From: Bacillota bacterium
GTDB taxonomy: Bacteria; Bacillota; Sulfobacillia; JAUYEG01
Assembly (NCBI GenBank): GCA_030691505.1
Contig: JAUYEG010000070.1
Span: forward strand, 23,777-87,776
Length of the DNA stretch: 64,000 nucleotides
Direction of reading: 5' to 3'
The translations under genes were made by a program, and so were the position numbers. The notes under the pieces are model-generated. The model had not been told where the DNA came from. It did no database searches and saw only the letters and a program-made list of their open reading frames with translations. Below, piece by piece: positions 22,657-58,115 of the stretch; within the stretch, counting starts at the first letter, position 1; every line of letters begins with the position of its first letter.

Positions 22657-23957
22657 AGCCCCACCCTCCGGAAGATGTAATCAACCTGAGCAAGCTGACG
22701 CCCGAGGTCAAATGCCTCCTCCAGGCGCTCCGGGCTGACAGTGCCGCGGACCTCTTCGTCGGCGGCGATAAGCTCGCGAAAGCTGACCTCGCGTTCCCAT
22801 GCCTCCATCGCGCGCGCCTGAACTGTGGCGTAGGCCCGCTCGCGCTGCATCCCAGCCTCCACGAGAGCCAACATCACCTGCTGGCTGAAAACCAGCCCGC
22901 CCGTCATTTCGAGGTTTCGCCGCATCCGCGCCTGGTCGACCGTCATGCCGCGCAGCACGTAGGTGAAGCGGTCGAGGACATAGTCAAGGAGGATGCAGCT
23001 GTCCGGGATGATCACGCGCTCGACGGAGCTGTTGGTAATGTCGCGCTCGTGCCAAAGGGCGACGTTCTCCAGCGCCGCCAGCGCGTTGCCGCGCATCACC
23101 CGCGACAGGCCGGCGACCCGCTCGGAGAGCTCCGGGTTTCGCTTGTGCGGCATGGCGCTCGAGCCTTTGGTCACCGCCCCCGCCCGCCCGCCGAAAGGCT
23201 CGTGAACTTCGCGGATCTCCGTGCGCTGCAAGTTGCGGATCTCCGTCGCCATCTTCTCCAGGGACGAAGCGCATATGGCGATGGTCGTGAGGAACTGGGC
23301 GTGCCGGTCACGCTGCAGGATCTGCGTGCTCACCGGAGCGGGCTCCAGGCCCAGCTTGTCGCAGACATATCGCTCCACGAACGGATCGATGTTCGCGAAA
23401 GTCCCCACCGCGCCGCTGAGTTTTCCCACCGAGATTGCCTGCCTGGCCTGCTCCATACGCTGGACGTTGCGGCGGGTCTCGTCGAGCCAGAGGGCCAGCT
23501 TGAGCCCAAAGGTCGTCGGCTCGGCGTGCACACCGTGGGTCCGCCCGATCATCGGCGTGTGCTTAAACTCCGCGGCCCGGTCCCTCAAAACGGCCTCAAG
23601 CTCGCGTAGCCCCCGCAACAAGAGGTCCGCGGATTGGCGCATGAGCAGCGAAAGCGCGGGGTCCTCGACATCGTATGAGGTCAGGCCGTAATGCAGGTAC
23701 TTTCCGGCCTCGCCGACCGTCTCGGCTACCCCGCTGACGAAGGCGATCATGTCGTGCTTAATATCCTTCTCGATCTCCAAGATGCGCGCGGTGTCAATGC
23801 GCGCCTTGGCCCGTATCTCCTCGACCGCCTCGCGCGGGATCTTGCCGAGCTCAGCCCAGGCCTCGCATGCCAGGATCTCGATCTCCAGCCAGGTCTGGTA
23901 CTTGTTGCTGAGCTCCCAGATCGCACCCATCTCCGGACGCGTGTACCGCTGGATCAC
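22653..23957 (-). CDS. purB: adenylosuccinate lyase
   Basis: MIQRYTRPEMGAIW N-terminus and fumarate-lyase signature region; 434 aa. Confidence 0.9.
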   Translation of the reverse strand: MIQRYTRPEMGAIWELSNKYQTWLEIEILACEAWAELGKIPREAVEEIRAKARIDTARILEIEKDIKHDMIAFVSGVAETVGEAGKYLHYGLTSYDVEDPALSLLMRQSADLLLRGLRELEAVLRDRAAEFKHTPMIGRTHGVHAEPTTFGLKLALWLDETRRNVQRMEQARQAISVGKLSGAVGTFANIDPFVERYVCDKLGLEPAPVSTQILQRDRHAQFLTTIAICASSLEKMATEIRNLQRTEIREVHEPFGGRAGAVTKGSSAMPHKRNPELSERVAGLSRVMRGNALAALENVALWHERDITNSSVERVIIPDSCILLDYVLDRFTYVLRGMTVDQARMRRNLEMTGGLVFSQQVMLALVEAGMQRERAYATVQARAMEAWEREVSFRELIAADEEVRGTVSPERLEEAFDLGRQLAQVDYIFRRVGL

Positions 23958-52148: not shown

Positions 52149-53597
52149 TTGGACGAAGGGGGACCCCCACTGGCCGAGCAAGCCGCAACTGACGGTCCGG
52201 TTGGGGACCGGATTCGCCGGCGCCGCCGTGAGCTAGGCATGACCCAGACCCAGCTCGCGGGAAATCGCTATTCCAAGAGCTACGTAAGCATCATCGAATC
52301 CGGCCGGGCAAGGCCGTCGGCCCAGGCGCTCGATTTCTTCGCCGCGCAACTGGACAAACCGGTCGAGTATTTTCGCCGTGACCAATCCACCCAGGCGTCG
52401 ACCCTGCGCTCTCTCCTCGCCGCGGCGCAGGCGTGCATCCGGCGGCGTGACTTCGCGGCAGCCGAGGAGAGACTGCGCCAGACGGCCGTGCTGGCCATGG
52501 CCCTCGACGATCCGGCGCATCTCGGTCGGGTCCACGACATTGCCGGCCACCTGTTCGTTGCGACCGGGGATCTACAGTCCGCGATCATGGCCTTCCGCGA
52601 AGCGATCACGGTCTACGCCGCCGCCGGGGCAATGGATTCAGTCGCGGCGGCCCGGTGCTCGCTGGCCAACGCCTTTTTCTTGAGCGGCGACATGAAGGCG
52701 GCGCTGGCCGAGACCAAGGCCGCCCAGGACGTCTACGCCGGTCTTGAGCCCAACCACCTGGTCCTCGGTCGCAGCTACCTTCTGGGAGGCAACGTCGCCA
52801 GCGCGACCGGCTGTCATGAAGCCGCAAGGCGTTGCTTTGAACAGGCCCTGTCCCTCATGGCCGGACGCGACGTGCTGGGCCTTGGCGAGACCCACGCCGC
52901 GCTCGGTTTTCACGCCCTCCGCCGCGGCGAGTGGGAAGAAGCCCGGGGCGGCTTCCAGGAGGCACTAAGAATCCTTGAGGGAGTCGGCGACTTCCACTTC
53001 CTGTCCGTCATCACAAGACACCTGTCTGAGGCTCTTTTCCGCTGCGGGGACCTGCAGCACGCGGCGGACATGACGCGGCGTTCCGGCAGCCTGAGCGCAT
53101 CGATCGGCGATCAGCACGGGGTCGTATGGGCCACGGTGCGTCTGGCCGAGCTGTCCTTGCCTGCCGGCGACCTGCCCACGGCGCGGGCCGCCGTCGCGGA
53201 GGCTCGCAACCTGCTGAAACAGCCCGCCCAAGCGAGCGAAGGATCGGGGCCGGAGTCGGAGGTGGAGGCGGAGGCGACGCAGAGGCTGCTGGGGGCAAGA
53301 GTGTGCCGCGCCGCGGCAGGCCTTTCGCACAGGGATGGCGATGTGGACTCGGCGATGCGTCACCTGCGGACCGCAATCGACCTTCTGGCGGGATGGCAAG
53401 CCGGCGTGGGCATGCACATTGGGCTGTGCCGGCAGCTGGCAGCCCTTCTGTGGGGGGCTGGACGGCACGATGACGCGGTCTTGTACTACGAACTCGGGCT
53501 GACGACCGCGGAGAACGCACAGCCTCGGGAGGCAGCAGGGCCGGACCCGGTGCGCGAACTGGCCCGGATGCCGTCGCCGCTGTGGTTTAGGAGCTAG
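52149..53597 (+). CDS. XRE-family HTH + TPR-like domain transcriptional regulator
   Basis: N-terminal HTH (RRRRELGMTQTQLAGNRYSKSYVSIIESG) followed by ~400 aa of alpha-helical TPR-like repeats. Confidence 0.75.
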   Translation: MDEGGPPLAEQAATDGPVGDRIRRRRRELGMTQTQLAGNRYSKSYVSIIESGRARPSAQALDFFAAQLDKPVEYFRRDQSTQASTLRSLLAAAQACIRRRDFAAAEERLRQTAVLAMALDDPAHLGRVHDIAGHLFVATGDLQSAIMAFREAITVYAAAGAMDSVAAARCSLANAFFLSGDMKAALAETKAAQDVYAGLEPNHLVLGRSYLLGGNVASATGCHEAARRCFEQALSLMAGRDVLGLGETHAALGFHALRRGEWEEARGGFQEALRILEGVGDFHFLSVITRHLSEALFRCGDLQHAADMTRRSGSLSASIGDQHGVVWATVRLAELSLPAGDLPTARAAVAEARNLLKQPAQASEGSGPESEVEAEATQRLLGARVCRAAAGLSHRDGDVDSAMRHLRTAIDLLAGWQAGVGMHIGLCRQLAALLWGAGRHDDAVLYYELGLTTAENAQPREAAGPDPVRELARMPSPLWFRS

Positions 53598-54739: not shown

Positions 54740-54768
54740 ATCTTAGGACACGGTGCCAAGCGTGTCAA
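54740..54768 (-). promoter_or_regulatory. sigma-A promoter of rplM-rpsI (TTGACA-17 nt-TAAGAT on the minus strand)
   Basis: rc of 54763-54768 is TTGACA and rc of 54740-54745 is TAAGAT, with a 17-nt spacer, about 55 nt upstream of rplM. Confidence 0.55.
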
Positions 54769-54850
54769 TCAAACCAGGCCTGACATCAAACCAGGCTGAC
54801 ATCGACCGGCTCAACACCAACCCGGCTTGACATCACTGGCCACAACCGCT
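54769..54850. repeat. three imperfect direct repeats (GATGTCA[A/G]GCC[T]GGTTTGA) immediately upstream of the rplM promoter
   Basis: tcaaaccaggcctgacatc / aaaccaggctgacatc / caacccggcttgacatc in tandem. Confidence 0.4.
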
Positions 54851-54882
54851 AAAGCGAAACATACCAGTCTGCAATGCGGCAG

Positions 54883-55311
54883 TCAACTGCGGCGACCCGC
54901 GGCCGGCGCTGCCAGCGCTGCCAGCGCGGCGAGCGGCACCGGACGAACCGCCGGAGGCGAGTCAAACTCGTGCCGGGAGGTCTTGGGAGGGTATGGCTGC
55001 CGCAAGCGGCCCGCGCGGACCACATCCTCCTTGGTCACCGGAAGGTCGGGGCGCCGCGGCCTGACGTTGATGCGCGGGTCGCGGTAGTCCACGAGATACG
55101 CCGGCACTAGCTGGCAGCCCAGGCTCTTAAGCGCGGACACCCGATGATGGCCGTCGAGTATGACGAGCGACCCGCCGTCCACGATCACCGGCTCCCGCAG
55201 CTCGCCGTCCCGCTCGATCTCCGACTCCAGCGCCCGAAGCCTGGCGGGGTCAACCTCCTCATGCTCAAGAAGCCCCTCCACCTGTATCAGGCAGAATGTG
55301 AACTGCACCAC
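54883..55311 (-). CDS. ParB/Srx-fold domain protein (possible small nucleotide-dependent kinase, SerK-like?)
   Basis: PVIVDGGSLVILDGHHRVSAL is the ParB/sulfiredoxin-fold DGHHR motif; 142 aa; GTG start 36 nt after the trpB2 stop. Confidence 0.55.
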   Translation of the reverse strand: MVQFTFCLIQVEGLLEHEEVDPARLRALESEIERDGELREPVIVDGGSLVILDGHHRVSALKSLGCQLVPAYLVDYRDPRINVRPRRPDLPVTKEDVVRAGRLRQPYPPKTSRHEFDSPPAVRPVPLAALAALAAPAAGRRS

Positions 55312-55347
55312 GGCTCGCCCGCACCCCCTTCCGGCGGCTGCCCCCGG

Positions 55348-56763
55348 TCACGCCTTTGGGAGGCTGGCCAGCGCCCGGTCGATCTCCGCTTGCGGATGAT
55401 CATAGTCCTTGAGTTGACCGGCGAAGTAGGACTCATAGGCCCCGAGATCGAAATGCCCGTGCCCGCTCAGCCCGAAGAGGATGGCAGGTGACGCTCCTGT
55501 CTCACGTGCCTCAAGGGCCAGGTCAACCGCAACACGCACGGCGTGGGCGGATTCCGGCGCCGGAAGGATGCCTTCGCTGCGCGCAAACGTCACCGCCGAT
55601 TCAAACACCTCAAGCTGCCTTACGGCACGCGCCTCCACGAAACCGTGTCGGACCAGTGCGCTGAGTATCGGGGCCGCGCCGTGGTAGCGGAGTCCGCCGG
55701 CGTGGATGCCGGCAGGAACGAAGCCATGGCCAAGTGTGTACATCTTTGCCACGGGGGCAAGGCAGGCCGTGTCGCCATAGTCATAGCCAAACGTGCCGCG
55801 TGTCAGGGTCGGGCACGCCGTGGGCTCGACCGCGATCACTCTCGGACCCTGCGGTGTGCTTTGCCCGGCGCGTTGAGCGGTCCCCGAATGCCGGCGGCGG
55901 GCAGCCGCGAGGGCGGGTTTCAGGAAGGGAAAGGCCAGACCGGCGAAGTTGCTCCCGCCGCCGACGCAGCCGACGAGCACGTCGGGACGATCACCGGCCA
56001 TCTCCATCTGCATTTGGGCCTCCAGGCCAATGACCGTCTGGTGCAGGAGCACGTGGTTGAGGACGCTGCCGAGCGAGTACTTTGTGTCTTCATGAGCGAC
56101 GGCATCCTCAACCGCCTCGCTGATGGCGATGCCGAGGCTGCCCGGCGACTCCGGATCACTGGCGAGGATGGCGCGCCCGGCCGCGGTCTTTGGGCTTGGA
56201 CTGGGGGTGACGTCCGCGCCGTATACCCGCATCATGGCCTTGCGATACGGCTTTTGGTCATAGCTGACCCGGACCATGTACACGGAGCACTCAAGCCCGA
56301 ACATCGCGCAGGCCATCGCCAGGGCAGAACCCCACTGTCCGGCTCCGGTTTCGGTCGCCAGACGCCGGACCCCTTCGCAATGGTTGTAGTAGGCCTGAGC
56401 GATGGAGGTATTGGCCTTATGGCTGCCGACCGGGCTCAGCCCCTCGTATTTGTAGTAAATCCTGGCGGGCGTGTTCAGGACCTGCTCCAGACGCCTGGCG
56501 CGAAATAGGGGAGCCGGCCGGTACTGGCGGTACAGGTCCAGGACCCGCCCCGGCACATCCACGGCCGGGGCCCTGGACACTTCCTGCTCGATCAGCGCCA
56601 TGGGGAACAGCGGCAGCAGGTCCTCCGGCCCAAGGGGCTGGAGCGTCCGCGGGTGCAACGGCGGATCGAGGTCAAACGGCAGGTCAGGGACGATGTTGTA
56701 CCAGGCCGTCGGGATGTCGTTCTCTCGTAACAGAAACTTCACGGCATCGTGTCCTTCGGGCAT
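55348..56763 (-). CDS. trpB: TrpB2-type tryptophan synthase beta-like PLP enzyme
   Basis: NIVPDLP...[17 protein letters not shown] (PLP lysine)...GGGSNFAG motifs of TrpB2; ATG at 56763 with GAGGAG 8 nt upstream; preceded by a Trp T-box leader. Confidence 0.85.
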
Positions 56764-56815
56764 CGATCTCGCTCCTCTCTTTGTCCGGCGCCGGTCGGCC
56801 GGCTGTACCGGAACG

Positions 56816-57215
56816 CAAAAACCCGCCCCCCTGGTTGGGGACGGGTTAAGACGGTCTCCGCGGTGCCACCCCTGTTGGCCCTGAGCTACGACGAAGCCGC
56901 ATGCCTGACCGGATCTATACGGCAGCAGCGTGGCGCCGTCGCCGTACGTGCTCGCTGGGCCCACTCATTGCGGGTACGAGGAGCGTCGCGGGGTAACAAG
57001 TCAACATACCCGGGCTCCGAATACCCTCTCCCTTTATCGGCGGATCTCCGGTGGGCCCTACTCGGCCGGCACGCCTAAGCGGCCAGGTTCCTTTCGGGCT
57101 CACGGCTCACGGGTCCATTCAACCGCTGCCGCCAGTGCCGGGCTCGCACCCTCCCCGGCTCGCTTTGACCGCTGACACGCGCTTACTAGCCCCGTTCATC
57201 GCCTTGACGCTATTA
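56816..57215 (-). promoter_or_regulatory. T-box riboswitch leader, specifier codon UGG (tRNA-Trp)
   Basis: On the minus strand: stem I GCGATGA/AGTA motifs near 57196-57202; specifier loop GAAUGGA (rc of 57114-57120); T-box sequence AGGGGTGGCACCGCGGAGAC (rc of 56858-56873); terminator CCCGTCCCC-aacca-GGGGGGCGGG+TTTTTG (56816-56846), 50 nt before the trpB2 start. Confidence 0.6.
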
Positions 57216-57275
57216 GGTTATGGTCGAGAGAAAGCTGCCTCTCGGGTTTCAGCTAGCATAGCATCGGTCGCTGGC

Positions 57276-58115
57276 TCAGTCAATGGCGTGACAACACAAG
57301 GTTTCAGCGGCGGTGATCCCCGCGTGGGGAGCCGGCTCGGAGGAGTATTTCACGTTTAGCAGGCACAACCCATGCGCGGGCACAGTTGGCCCGGCCCCGC
57401 GGCGGGCGCCGGACGTAAGCAAGGCCGCAACGGCGTCCGCGTCCATCCTGCCCCTGCCCACCTCAAACAGCGTGCCGGCAATAATTCGGACCATGTGGTA
57501 CAGAAAGCCATCGGCCTCAACCAGCACGAAACCAACCCGGGACCCCGACCAGGGCGGGAGGCAATGCTGTCCCGAACCAACCTCGCAGCGAAAGACCGTT
57601 CTGGCCGCGTCCCTTACCGGCCGCCCGACGTCCTGAAACGCCGAGAAATCGTGCCGGCCGACGAGGCGGCGGGCCGCCAGGTCCATCGCCGCCAGGTCTA
57701 TCGCCCTGCGCACTTCGTAGGCATGCCTGGCGAGCAAAGGTTGCCGGACGTCGCCCTGCCAGCCGTAAAAGGTGTAGGCATAGGTTTTGGACTGGGCGTG
57801 GAACCGGGGGTGAAAAGCAAAGGGAACCTCCTCGGCCGCGAGAGCGCTCACATCGCCGGGCAGGTTGGCGTTAAGGGCGAGGGGAACGCGCTCAGCAGGC
57901 ACAGTCCCCTCGGTATCGAACGCGATGACCTGCCCGAGGGCGTGAACGCCGGAATCCGTGCGTCCGGCCGCGGCGAACCGGGCCGGCGGACCCAGCGTGG
58001 CCTCGATCGCCCTGTACAGCACATCCTGAACCGAGGTCAGCCCGCGGCCCTGCCGCTGAAACCCGCAGTAAGCCCCGCCGTCGTAGCTGACGGTGATCTT
58101 CAGGCGGCGTGTCAT
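57276..58115 (-). CDS. truA: tRNA pseudouridine(38-40) synthase
   Basis: KITVSYDGGAYCGFQRQ...RTDSGVHALGQV is the TruA catalytic-Asp region; ATG with GGAGG 9 nt upstream, ATGA overlap with the ecfT stop. Confidence 0.9.
   Translation of the reverse strand: MTRRLKITVSYDGGAYCGFQRQGRGLTSVQDVLYRAIEATLGPPARFAAAGRTDSGVHALGQVIAFDTEGTVPAERVPLALNANLPGDVSALAAEEVPFAFHPRFHAQSKTYAYTFYGWQGDVRQPLLARHAYEVRRAIDLAAMDLAARRLVGRHDFSAFQDVGRPVRDAARTVFRCEVGSGQHCLPPWSGSRVGFVLVEADGFLYHMVRIIAGTLFEVGRGRMDADAVAALLTSGARRGAGPTVPAHGLCLLNVKYSSEPAPHAGITAAETLCCHAID

Follow-up and report, generated by a model that had tools for sequence, protein, structure and literature searches.

A tryptophan-specific T-box leader, the gene trpB2, and a gene for a 142-amino-acid (aa) protein related to the free L-serine kinase SerK lie together on the minus strand of contig JAUYEG010000070.1 of a Bacillota bacterium, within the 64,000-nucleotide (nt) stretch analyzed here (positions 23,777 to 87,776 of the contig; referred to as the window). 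According to the interpretation favored here, which is regarded as reasonably likely, tryptophan starvation induces a minimal serine kinase that makes O-phospho-L-serine (O-phosphoserine), and TrpB2 condenses this compound with indole to tryptophan. For a wider generalization the chances appear evenly balanced: a widespread family of minimal free serine kinases would act in Bacteria and Archaea as dedicated O-phosphoserine supplier for TrpB2, for CysK/M-type sulfhydrylases, and occasionally for TrpAB, and the pair with trpB2 would be a portable module turning serine and indole into tryptophan, switched on in Bacillota by uncharged tRNA-Trp. The novelty lies in the enzyme pairing, i.e., TrpB2 with a half-size relative of SerK and SbnI, whereas the regulation is ordinary.

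The 142-aa protein

Judged from its sequence and predicted structure, the 142-aa protein (mini-SerK below) is a SerK-type core that belongs to neither the SerK nor the SbnI equivalog and is not a ParB. Pfam reports nothing significant for it (ParBc_2 has an E-value of 0.26, and no ParB_N match appears at E ≤ 10), and the noc model gives an E-value of 0.22. The NCBIfam models for SerK (NF053625) and SbnI (NF033589) match with E-values of 2.2e-17 and 3.8e-11 (63 and 42.9 bits, respectively), and a PDB sequence search with the protein also leads to SbnI and SerK. The helix-turn-helix (HTH) and the C-terminal dimerization domain of ParB/Noc clamps were not found in the 142-aa protein.

The AlphaFold2 model built from the family alignment has a single domain, with a predicted local distance difference test (pLDDT) of 95.3 and a predicted template modeling (TM) score of 0.88. 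Foldseek ranks PF0380/SerK and SbnI first for this model (query-normalized TM 0.75–0.79), whereas ParB, Noc, KorB, and sulfiredoxin (Srx) match the core alone with TM ~0.4 (ParB and Noc over ~80–110 residues). The family profile aligns with SerK 5X0B at an E-value of 4.8e-26 in two stretches, profile positions 11–108 with SerK 15–116 and 99–138 with SerK 202–241, and thus the 142-aa protein corresponds to SerK without a middle subdomain of ~85 residues (~117–201). Kept from SerK are the glutamate of the PHE motif (E18, equivalent to SerK Glu30), DGHHR, and the C-terminal TKEEV...PKT(T/S)RH. As for the match between E18 and Glu30, the E30A and E30Q mutant SerK chains show A or Q at that very column. 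A long-form relative, P0147 (252 aa), carries the insert between '...VESW' and '...TKEKV...PPKTTRH'; family members are ~120–165 aa long, and all of the 80 best loci described below encode short proteins.

Relatives of the 142-aa protein were sought in a set of 5.8 billion proteins, which yielded 74 sequences of 104–201 aa. Invariant in their alignment are L14, H17, E18, P41, I51-L-D-G-H-H-R57, Y76, K94, T111, and H114, and the motifs of the window protein read H17-E18, I51-LDGHHR57, K94, and K110-TSRH114. E18 and D53-G-H-H-R57 are likewise invariant in 36 family members. Glu20 and Asp58 of SbnI, which are required for its activity, are taken to correspond, by count on the alignment, to the HE glutamate and the DGxHR aspartate.

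The initial annotation had described a ParB/sulfiredoxin-fold protein with a DGHHR motif and placed it near SerK. The motif is present (ILDGHHR), and the fold and the similarity to SerK are borne out by TM scores of 0.76–0.79 to SerK against ~0.4 for ParB, Noc, and Srx, together with the profile match given above. The kinship holds insofar as SerK is the closest protein by sequence and structure, but the protein is not a SerK orthologue, having no middle subdomain and only 63 of the required 380 bits.

Comparison with characterized kinases

In Thermococcus kodakarensis, SerK (TK0378) phosphorylates free L-serine in an ADP-dependent reaction (its structures include PDB 5X0B, and that of PF0380 is 1VK1). 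It has in common with mini-SerK the ParB/Srx-like core, PHE/Glu30, DGHHR, and TKEEV...PKT(T/S)RH, and it is the best structural match. In contrast, SerK is 242 aa long, includes the whole subdomain at residues ~117–201 that is absent here, and has ~15–16% identity to the window protein in the structural alignment; the partner in the window is TrpB2 under a T-box. SerK supplies O-phosphoserine to CysK, a fold-type-II pyridoxal phosphate (PLP) enzyme (PMC5120207), and O-phosphoserine is a substrate of archaeal CysK/OPSS (Makino et al. 2016). Outside Thermococcus, Pyrococcus, Desulfurococcus, and Staphylothermus, clear-cut homologues of SerK are lacking according to Makino et al.; compared with these four hyperthermophilic genera, the short family spans both Bacteria and Archaea.

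SbnI and SbnA of the Staphylococcus aureus staphyloferrin B operon (5UJE, 5UJD, 6NR6) likewise combine a SerK-like kinase and a fold-type-II PLP enzyme in one operon. They follow the same logic of a kinase and an O-phosphoserine-consuming enzyme, and SbnI is also a heme-responsive regulator. The N-terminal 70–90 residues of SbnI align with the short family (E-values of 1e-8 for a single sequence and 1e-13 for the profile), and both have HE and DGxHR. SbnI, however, is ~254 aa long, its C-terminal region is unmatched by the short family, with no detectable match to the KT(S/T)RH segment, and its pathway leads to a siderophore precursor rather than to tryptophan as proposed here. SerK had been named the only characterized free serine kinase in the initial annotation, which does not hold, as S. 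aureus SbnI is another (PDB titles; reference in PMC12704722).

A 2025 survey of the ParB-CTPase fold covers SerK, SbnI, and Srx and is silent on tryptophan and TrpB (PMC12704722), and full-text literature searches returned no description of TrpB2 linked to a SerK-type kinase or a ParB-like partner. The similarity to SerK is partly captured by annotation pipelines, since some JGI records automatically label family members 'L-serine kinase (ADP)'.

TrpB2

The product of trpB2 passes the curated TrpB2 cut-offs, in agreement with its original assignment: it scores 689.6 bits with NF009057 (cut-off 366) and 627.9 bits with TIGR01415 (cut-off 518.85). The canonical trpB model TIGR00263, in contrast, gives 147.8 bits against a cut-off of 392.45. 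The closest PDB structures are those of Sulfolobus TrpB2 (6HUL, 4QYS, and 6HTE, E-values of 1e-116 to 1e-127), compared with ~1e-38 for TrpB1. A 538-aa call for the open reading frame (ORF) of trpB2 over-extends upstream through the leader; the real start is ATG 56763, since the NCBIfam alignment begins at residue 7 of the 471-aa protein and GAGGAG precedes this ATG.

The motif (A)GGLRYHG is found in the window TrpB2 (R359) and in 30 of the 31 strong TrpB2 matches among the collected loci, and the two TrpB1-like matches with a recognizable motif have AGLDYPG at the same place. The corresponding Asp-to-Arg change at R359 would suit phosphate binding. TrpB2 enzymes are reported to be dependent on O-phosphoserine (Busch et al. 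2014, as cited in PMC11917138), and the window enzyme would be expected to prefer this substrate as well. It resembles TrpB2 of Sulfolobus solfataricus (4QYS, 6HTE, 6HUL) and Thermotoga maritima in passing the TrpB2 models and having GGLRYHG. For the characterized TrpB2 enzymes, however, no dedicated O-phosphoserine supplier has been described, whereas in the window trpB2 is paired with a SerK-like gene under a Trp T-box. Both partner types of the family, TrpB2 and CysK, are known to use O-phosphoserine in at least some characterized members.

Family size, gene linkage, and fusions

An exhaustive HMMER search against 1.84 billion cluster representatives returned 4,836 proteins with E-values up to 1e-3; 1,902 of these remain at E ≤ 1e-10, and 334 still do so at E ≤ 1e-30. 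A pattern scan with one genome per GTDB species confirmed at least 576 loci, and the linkage counts refer to the best 80 of them. In 44 of these 80 the gene stands beside a fold-type-II PLP beta-replacement enzyme. TrpB2 is encoded directly next to it in 32 loci, an overlapping or abutting CysK/M-like gene occurs in 9 (7 Caldisericota or Cryosericum-type and 2 Thermoproteota archaea), and trpA-trpB1 lies next door in 3, all of them archaeal. PALP is the most frequent neighbor family even in the loci without trpB2.

Loci L001 to L022 are all linked to trpB2, which lies upstream on the same strand with gaps of −3 to ~120 nt after over-called starts are discounted. Other trpB2-linked loci belong to an unclassified archaeon (L028), Micrarchaeota (L036 and L064), and metagenome-assembled genomes (MAGs) of Saccharibacteria (L049, in reversed order) and of a gammaproteobacterium (L065). 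A rough neighbor-joining tree places the window protein inside one large trpB2-linked clade, in which every member with upstream sequence is trpB2-linked; the only exception is L027, where the gene lies 110 nt from the contig end. Linkage to trpB2 recurs on at least three further branches (at least four in all), and the cysK-linked members group apart.

Two genuine fusions to PLP enzymes, P0128 and P0078, were found among the long matches. In P0128, mini-SerK residues 5–140 are followed by a cysteine synthase (395.7 bits vs 344 for cysKM and 358.4 vs 351 for cysK), and P0078 consists of mini-SerK, a second degenerate copy, and an archaeal-type CysK/M-like enzyme. Operon pairing across many phyla together with fusion is a classic signature of consecutive steps or of a physical complex. 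The earlier treatment of trpB2 and the 142-aa gene as one unit agrees with the conservation of the pair in the best loci, its recurrence on other branches, and the pairing and fusion with CysK/M elsewhere.

Several candidates were rejected. P0075, P0076, P0077, P0079, P0082, and P0086 were considered as TrpB2 fusions, and none of them has a PALP domain. The 467-aa ORF of L054, which lies over trpB2 in a different frame, is an artefact of ORF calling. Neighbors of 488, 212, 237, 436, and 323 aa in loci without trpB2 do not form a trp operon; they are TrkH/TrkA, an RNA methyltransferase, PCMT, and others.

Other architectures and contexts were also observed. P0076 (610 aa) holds two tandem copies of the module inside a low-complexity protein, P0137 joins a gamma-carbonic-anhydrase/PaaY-like hexapeptide domain to it, and P0188 a nucleotidyltransferase; these suggest roles beyond TrpB2 and CysK. 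Among loci of deltaproteobacterial MAGs with no PLP partner (L051, L057, L066–L068, L075, and L077) the neighbors include glycine-cleavage P and H genes, and loci of Fraserbacteria, Bipolaricaulota, and related MAGs (L023, L026, L033, L038, L040, L058, L060, and L072) have PCMT, RNA methyltransferase, TrkA/TrkH, and threonine aldolase neighbors. The links to glycine cleavage and threonine aldolase hint at general serine/glycine metabolism.

The T-box leader

The regulation of the pair is almost certainly by a tRNA-Trp-specific T-box with terminator/antiterminator switching, an ordinary new case of a known class. Run with permissive filters on the spacer between truA and trpB2 alone, Rfam RF00230 (T-box) matches the minus strand over the full model (positions 1–219) with 60.3 bits and an E-value of 1.3e-12. 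The Rfam gathering score for RF00230, 93 bits, is a threshold set by curation and does not describe the structure of the RNA. Since the match falls below it, a default scan is blank, and the scan of the whole window (1–64000) at curated thresholds returned no match of any kind (no tRNA, rRNA, or other riboswitch). The shortfall is explained by three insertions of 24 nt, 58 nt, and 71 nt replacing 5; the first two lie in the Stem II/post-Stem-II region, and the last makes Stem III 71 nt long against 5 nt in the model. The minimum free energy fold of the whole leader, ~485 nt long, is uninformative (z = −0.89).

The leader contains the full set of canonical T-box elements. Stem I has the GA (kink-turn) motif GAUGA...UGA and a specifier loop with AGUA on its 5' side. 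The AGCGA bulge and a distal loop are also present, and the T-box sequence, read from position 56872 onward, is GGGGUGGCACCGCGG. The terminator hairpin is trailed by UUUUU, with the hairpin end 57 nt and the end of the U-run ~50 nt upstream of ATG 56763. Its 5' arm is at the same time the 3' arm of the antiterminator, and the two structures are therefore mutually exclusive. Compared with the Trp-specifier T-boxes of Firmicutes trp biosynthesis genes and trpS (RF00230), the leader has the same Stem I GA/kink-turn, AGUA, UGG followed by a purine, UGGN bulge, and terminator/antiterminator; it differs in length (a match of 375 nt vs a 219-position consensus) and in the regulated genes, trpB2 and mini-SerK.

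The initial annotation had proposed a complete T-box leader upstream of trpB2, with a GA-motif Stem I, a GAA-UGG-A specifier, the T-box sequence, and a competing terminator ~50 nt before the start codon. All of these were recovered at the expected places (the UGG at 57117–57115), and the covariance model scores the leader clearly by E-value, although not at its gathering score.

The window belongs to a high-GC lineage (~66%), its source resembling a Bacillota relative of Symbiobacterium-like MAGs, and the T-box, the sole structured RNA recovered, needed permissive filters; other leaders in such a lineage may likewise be missed by default scans. Downstream of the T-box terminator and ahead of the ribosome-binding site of trpB2, a GC-rich hairpin (CCGGUACAGCCGGCCGACCGGCGCCGG) at ~56780–56812 is conserved in L083 and might contribute to stability or add a second level of control.

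Conservation and covariation of the leader

Orthologous leaders were gathered from trpB2 loci found through their downstream mini-SerK gene. A T-box core with terminator and U-run precedes the pair in 23 of them; GAAUGG(A/G)CC occurs in 22 of the 23, and the GAAUGG bases are invariant in the 23-sequence alignment A2. Two leaders, those of L013 (114.7 bits) and L011 (100 bits), exceed the Rfam curated threshold. The locus L083, syntenically the closest to the window (see below), has a leader of ~500 nt with the same long architecture, conserved cores, and more variable inserts, and the long leader is thus a lineage trait.

For the pair counts, the canonical Rfam pairing was projected onto MAFFT alignments, with slid pairings as controls. 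Paired cells make up 79.8% in Stem I (14–47% in its controls), 88.9% in the antiterminator (44–65%), and 92.9% in the terminator (43–63%). Compensatory changes on both sides occur at 15 of 21 Stem I pairs across the 23 leaders. Column 48, which holds C or U, covaries both with column 15 of the antiterminator (9 G-C to A-U changes) and with column 71 of the terminator (8 changes), as would be expected for a switch between two structures that exclude each other. A Stem I fold by RNAalifold paired the specifier bases and was set aside for the canonical Rfam pairing.

The UGGCACC bulge is invariant in 24 leaders; its UGGC fits a tRNA ending in GCCA, with which it would base-pair. Bacterial tRNA-Trp has G73 as its discriminator base.

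T-boxes are mainly a feature of Bacillota. In a Saccharibacteria (Candidate Phyla Radiation) MAG, however, a T-box core with a UGG specifier and a terminator lies upstream of the reversed pair, mini-SerK then trpB2 (L049:4859–5046); this may mean that the regulated cassette was transferred horizontally as a whole or that the contig was mis-binned. In a related Bacillota MAG (L007:1192–1313), an unrelated match to the molybdenum-cofactor (Moco) riboswitch (RF01055, 61.3 bits) precedes the trpB2 cassette by ~3 kb.

Locus organization

The minus-strand gene order is ecfT, truA, a 512-nt spacer, trpB2, a 36-nt gap, the 142-aa ORF, a spacer of ~200 nt, rplM, and rpsI (Table 1).

Table 1. Features of the trpB2/mini-SerK cassette and its upstream region in the window
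Feature	Position	Strand	Basis or remark
truA	58142-57276	-	directly upstream of the trpB2 cassette
Promoter-like TTGACT-17 nt-TATGCT with TG extension	57255..57283	-	overlaps the truA stop codon
T-box leader: Stem I, Stem II region, Stem III, antiterminator	56834..57208	-	RF00230, 375 nt
Specifier codon UGG (Trp), context GAA-UGG-A, 3' side of specifier loop	57115..57117	-	RF00230 alignment
T-box sequence AGGGGUGGCACCGCGGAGAC	56872-56853	-	leader sequence
T-box sequence and antiterminator	56837..56872	-	GGGG:CCCC and GCGG:CCGU pairing around the UGGCACC bulge
Intrinsic terminator AACCCGUCCCC-AACCAG-GGGGGCGGGUU, then U-run	56813..56847	-	hairpin 56847..56820, 11 pairs, 8 G-C
trpB2	55348..56763	-	471 aa; ATG at 56763 after ribosome-binding site GAGGAG; stop at 55348
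mini-SerK gene	54883..55311	-	142 aa; GTG start at 55311; stop at 54883; 36 nt past the trpB2 stop

According to the initial annotation, the pair is inserted between truA and rplM. This position is present in the window, with truA upstream and rplM/rpsI downstream, but it is specific to the lineage. Only L083, whose protein is 74% identical, has the exact synteny of the window (rplQ-ecfA-ecfA'-ecfT-truA-trpB2-miniSerK-rplM-rpsI-HTH/TPR-amidase, where TPR is the tetratricopeptide repeat), and none of the 80 best loci has truA, rplM, rpsI, or ecfT within 6 kb of the gene. In L081 (75% identity) the pair is flanked by a Mu-type transposase region and the pyr operon. Since L083 shares the site while L081 and the 80 loci differ, the pair behaves as a relocatable cassette. 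Cassette and flanks have equal GC content, and therefore there is no compositional sign of recent transfer.

The promoter-like site at the truA end is probably the start of the leader transcript. It has 9 of 12 hexamer matches and is a consensus match only; 3 promoter-like sites were found in the region vs 0.3 expected from shuffles. Similar promoter-like sites, TTGACTG-17 nt-TATG(C/T)T, overlap the stop codons of truA (57255–57283) and of the mini-SerK gene (54858–54886), which could be chance or the trace of a cassette insertion ahead of the original rplM promoter.

The spacer between mini-SerK and rplM contains three imperfect direct repeats of ~17–21 nt at 54772–54835 (minus strand, GATGTCA(A/G)GCC(T/G)GGTTTG...), immediately followed downstream by a strong promoter-like site, TTGACA-17-TAAGAT, at 54768..54740. 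The repeats could serve as a binding array for a regulator or belong to a leader of rplM-rpsI; an L13 leader was not found here with Rfam. After rpsI, a divergent gene at 52149–53597 (+) encodes a 482-aa HTH and TPR (MalT-like) regulator, which occupies the same position in L083.

Proposed mechanism and alternative explanations

In the favored reading, the pair would form a self-contained operon with its own promoter at the truA end, induced by tryptophan starvation. With charged tRNA-Trp, the terminator at 56847–56820 would form and transcription would stop. Uncharged tRNA-Trp would pair through its anticodon with the UGG of the specifier and through its free GCCA end with the UGGC bulge, stabilizing the antiterminator and allowing transcription of trpB2 and the 142-aa gene. 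The 142-aa protein would then phosphorylate L-serine to O-phosphoserine, which TrpB2 would condense with indole to tryptophan.

Several points weigh against this reading. The standard route to serine via SerA and SerC already passes through O-phosphoserine, and a dedicated kinase is therefore not strictly required. The 142-aa protein misses the equivalog cut-offs by far (63 vs 380 bits for SerK and 42.9 vs 350 bits for SbnI), and the middle subdomain of SerK (~117–201) is absent from it. About 36 of the 80 loci (~45%) have no PLP partner nearby, with PCMT, TrkAH, and glycine-cleavage genes among the neighbors, and the family may thus have other or broader roles. Finally, the nucleotide chemistry of the fold is not predictable, because one SerK-like protein from archaea was found to bind CTP but not ATP (PMC12704722).

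The loss of the middle subdomain would also suit a non-catalytic role, in which the 142-aa protein is a nucleotide- or ligand-binding subunit that activates, stabilizes, or regulates TrpB2 (elsewhere CysK/M), much as TrpA activates TrpB1, with the role of the T-box unchanged. Tight operon linkage and fusions are equally expected of such a physical partner, and other proteins use the ParB/Srx fold for switching or scaffolding (PMC12704722). This explanation is nevertheless considered unlikely: the residues tied to catalysis in the kinases (the Glu30 equivalent, the DGHHR aspartate, and KT(S/T)RH) are invariant, which a scaffold would not need, and the loci without a nearby PLP partner speak against it as well. 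A similarly small chance is given to a SerK-type kinase or phosphotransferase with another substrate or direction, acting on a different hydroxy-amino acid or passing the phosphate of O-phosphoserine to a nucleotide, and so tuning pools rather than feeding TrpB2 directly. The glycine-cleavage, threonine aldolase, and class-V aminotransferase contexts outside the trpB2 and cysK groups point to serine/glycine metabolism, and serine assimilation was put forward by Makino et al. as a further role of SerK. By far the commonest partners, however, are TrpB2 and CysK/M-like enzymes, users of O-phosphoserine or their relatives, and co-regulation by a Trp T-box is sensible only if the product helps to make tryptophan.

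As for an ordinary ParB-like DNA-binding protein or nuclease that is a chance neighbor, leaving trpB2 alone relevant to the T-box, it is very improbable. The weak Pfam match to ParBc_2, a 'putative ParB-like nuclease' (E-value 0.26), the earlier report of the PF0380 homologue as a nuclease (Makino et al.), and the database label 'ParB N-terminal domain-containing protein' on some relatives would agree with it. In contrast, the protein is 142 aa long with no HTH or dimerization domain, and ParB, Noc, and KorB match a core of ~80 residues with TM ~0.4. Chance adjacency does not explain why trpB2 remains next to the gene in different phyla and in both domains of life, nor why there are fusions with CysK.

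Implications

TrpB2 is common in Bacteria and Archaea, and both its physiological role, usually given as 'indole salvage', and the reason for its preference for O-phosphoserine have remained unclear. A conserved, co-regulated, and sometimes fused SerK-like partner offers a testable answer, namely a dedicated route from serine via O-phosphoserine to tryptophan (or cysteine). The T-box, while routine in its class, provides the physiological signal, tryptophan starvation, that ties the pair to tryptophan supply. If the proposal is true, the in vivo source of the unusual substrate of TrpB2 would be explained, and free serine kinases would extend from a few hyperthermophilic archaea and staphylococci to ~1,900 cluster representatives (E ≤ 1e-10) in both prokaryotic domains. 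It would also define the minimal catalytic core of SerK-type kinases and correct many annotations as 'ParB N-terminal domain protein' or 'hypothetical'.

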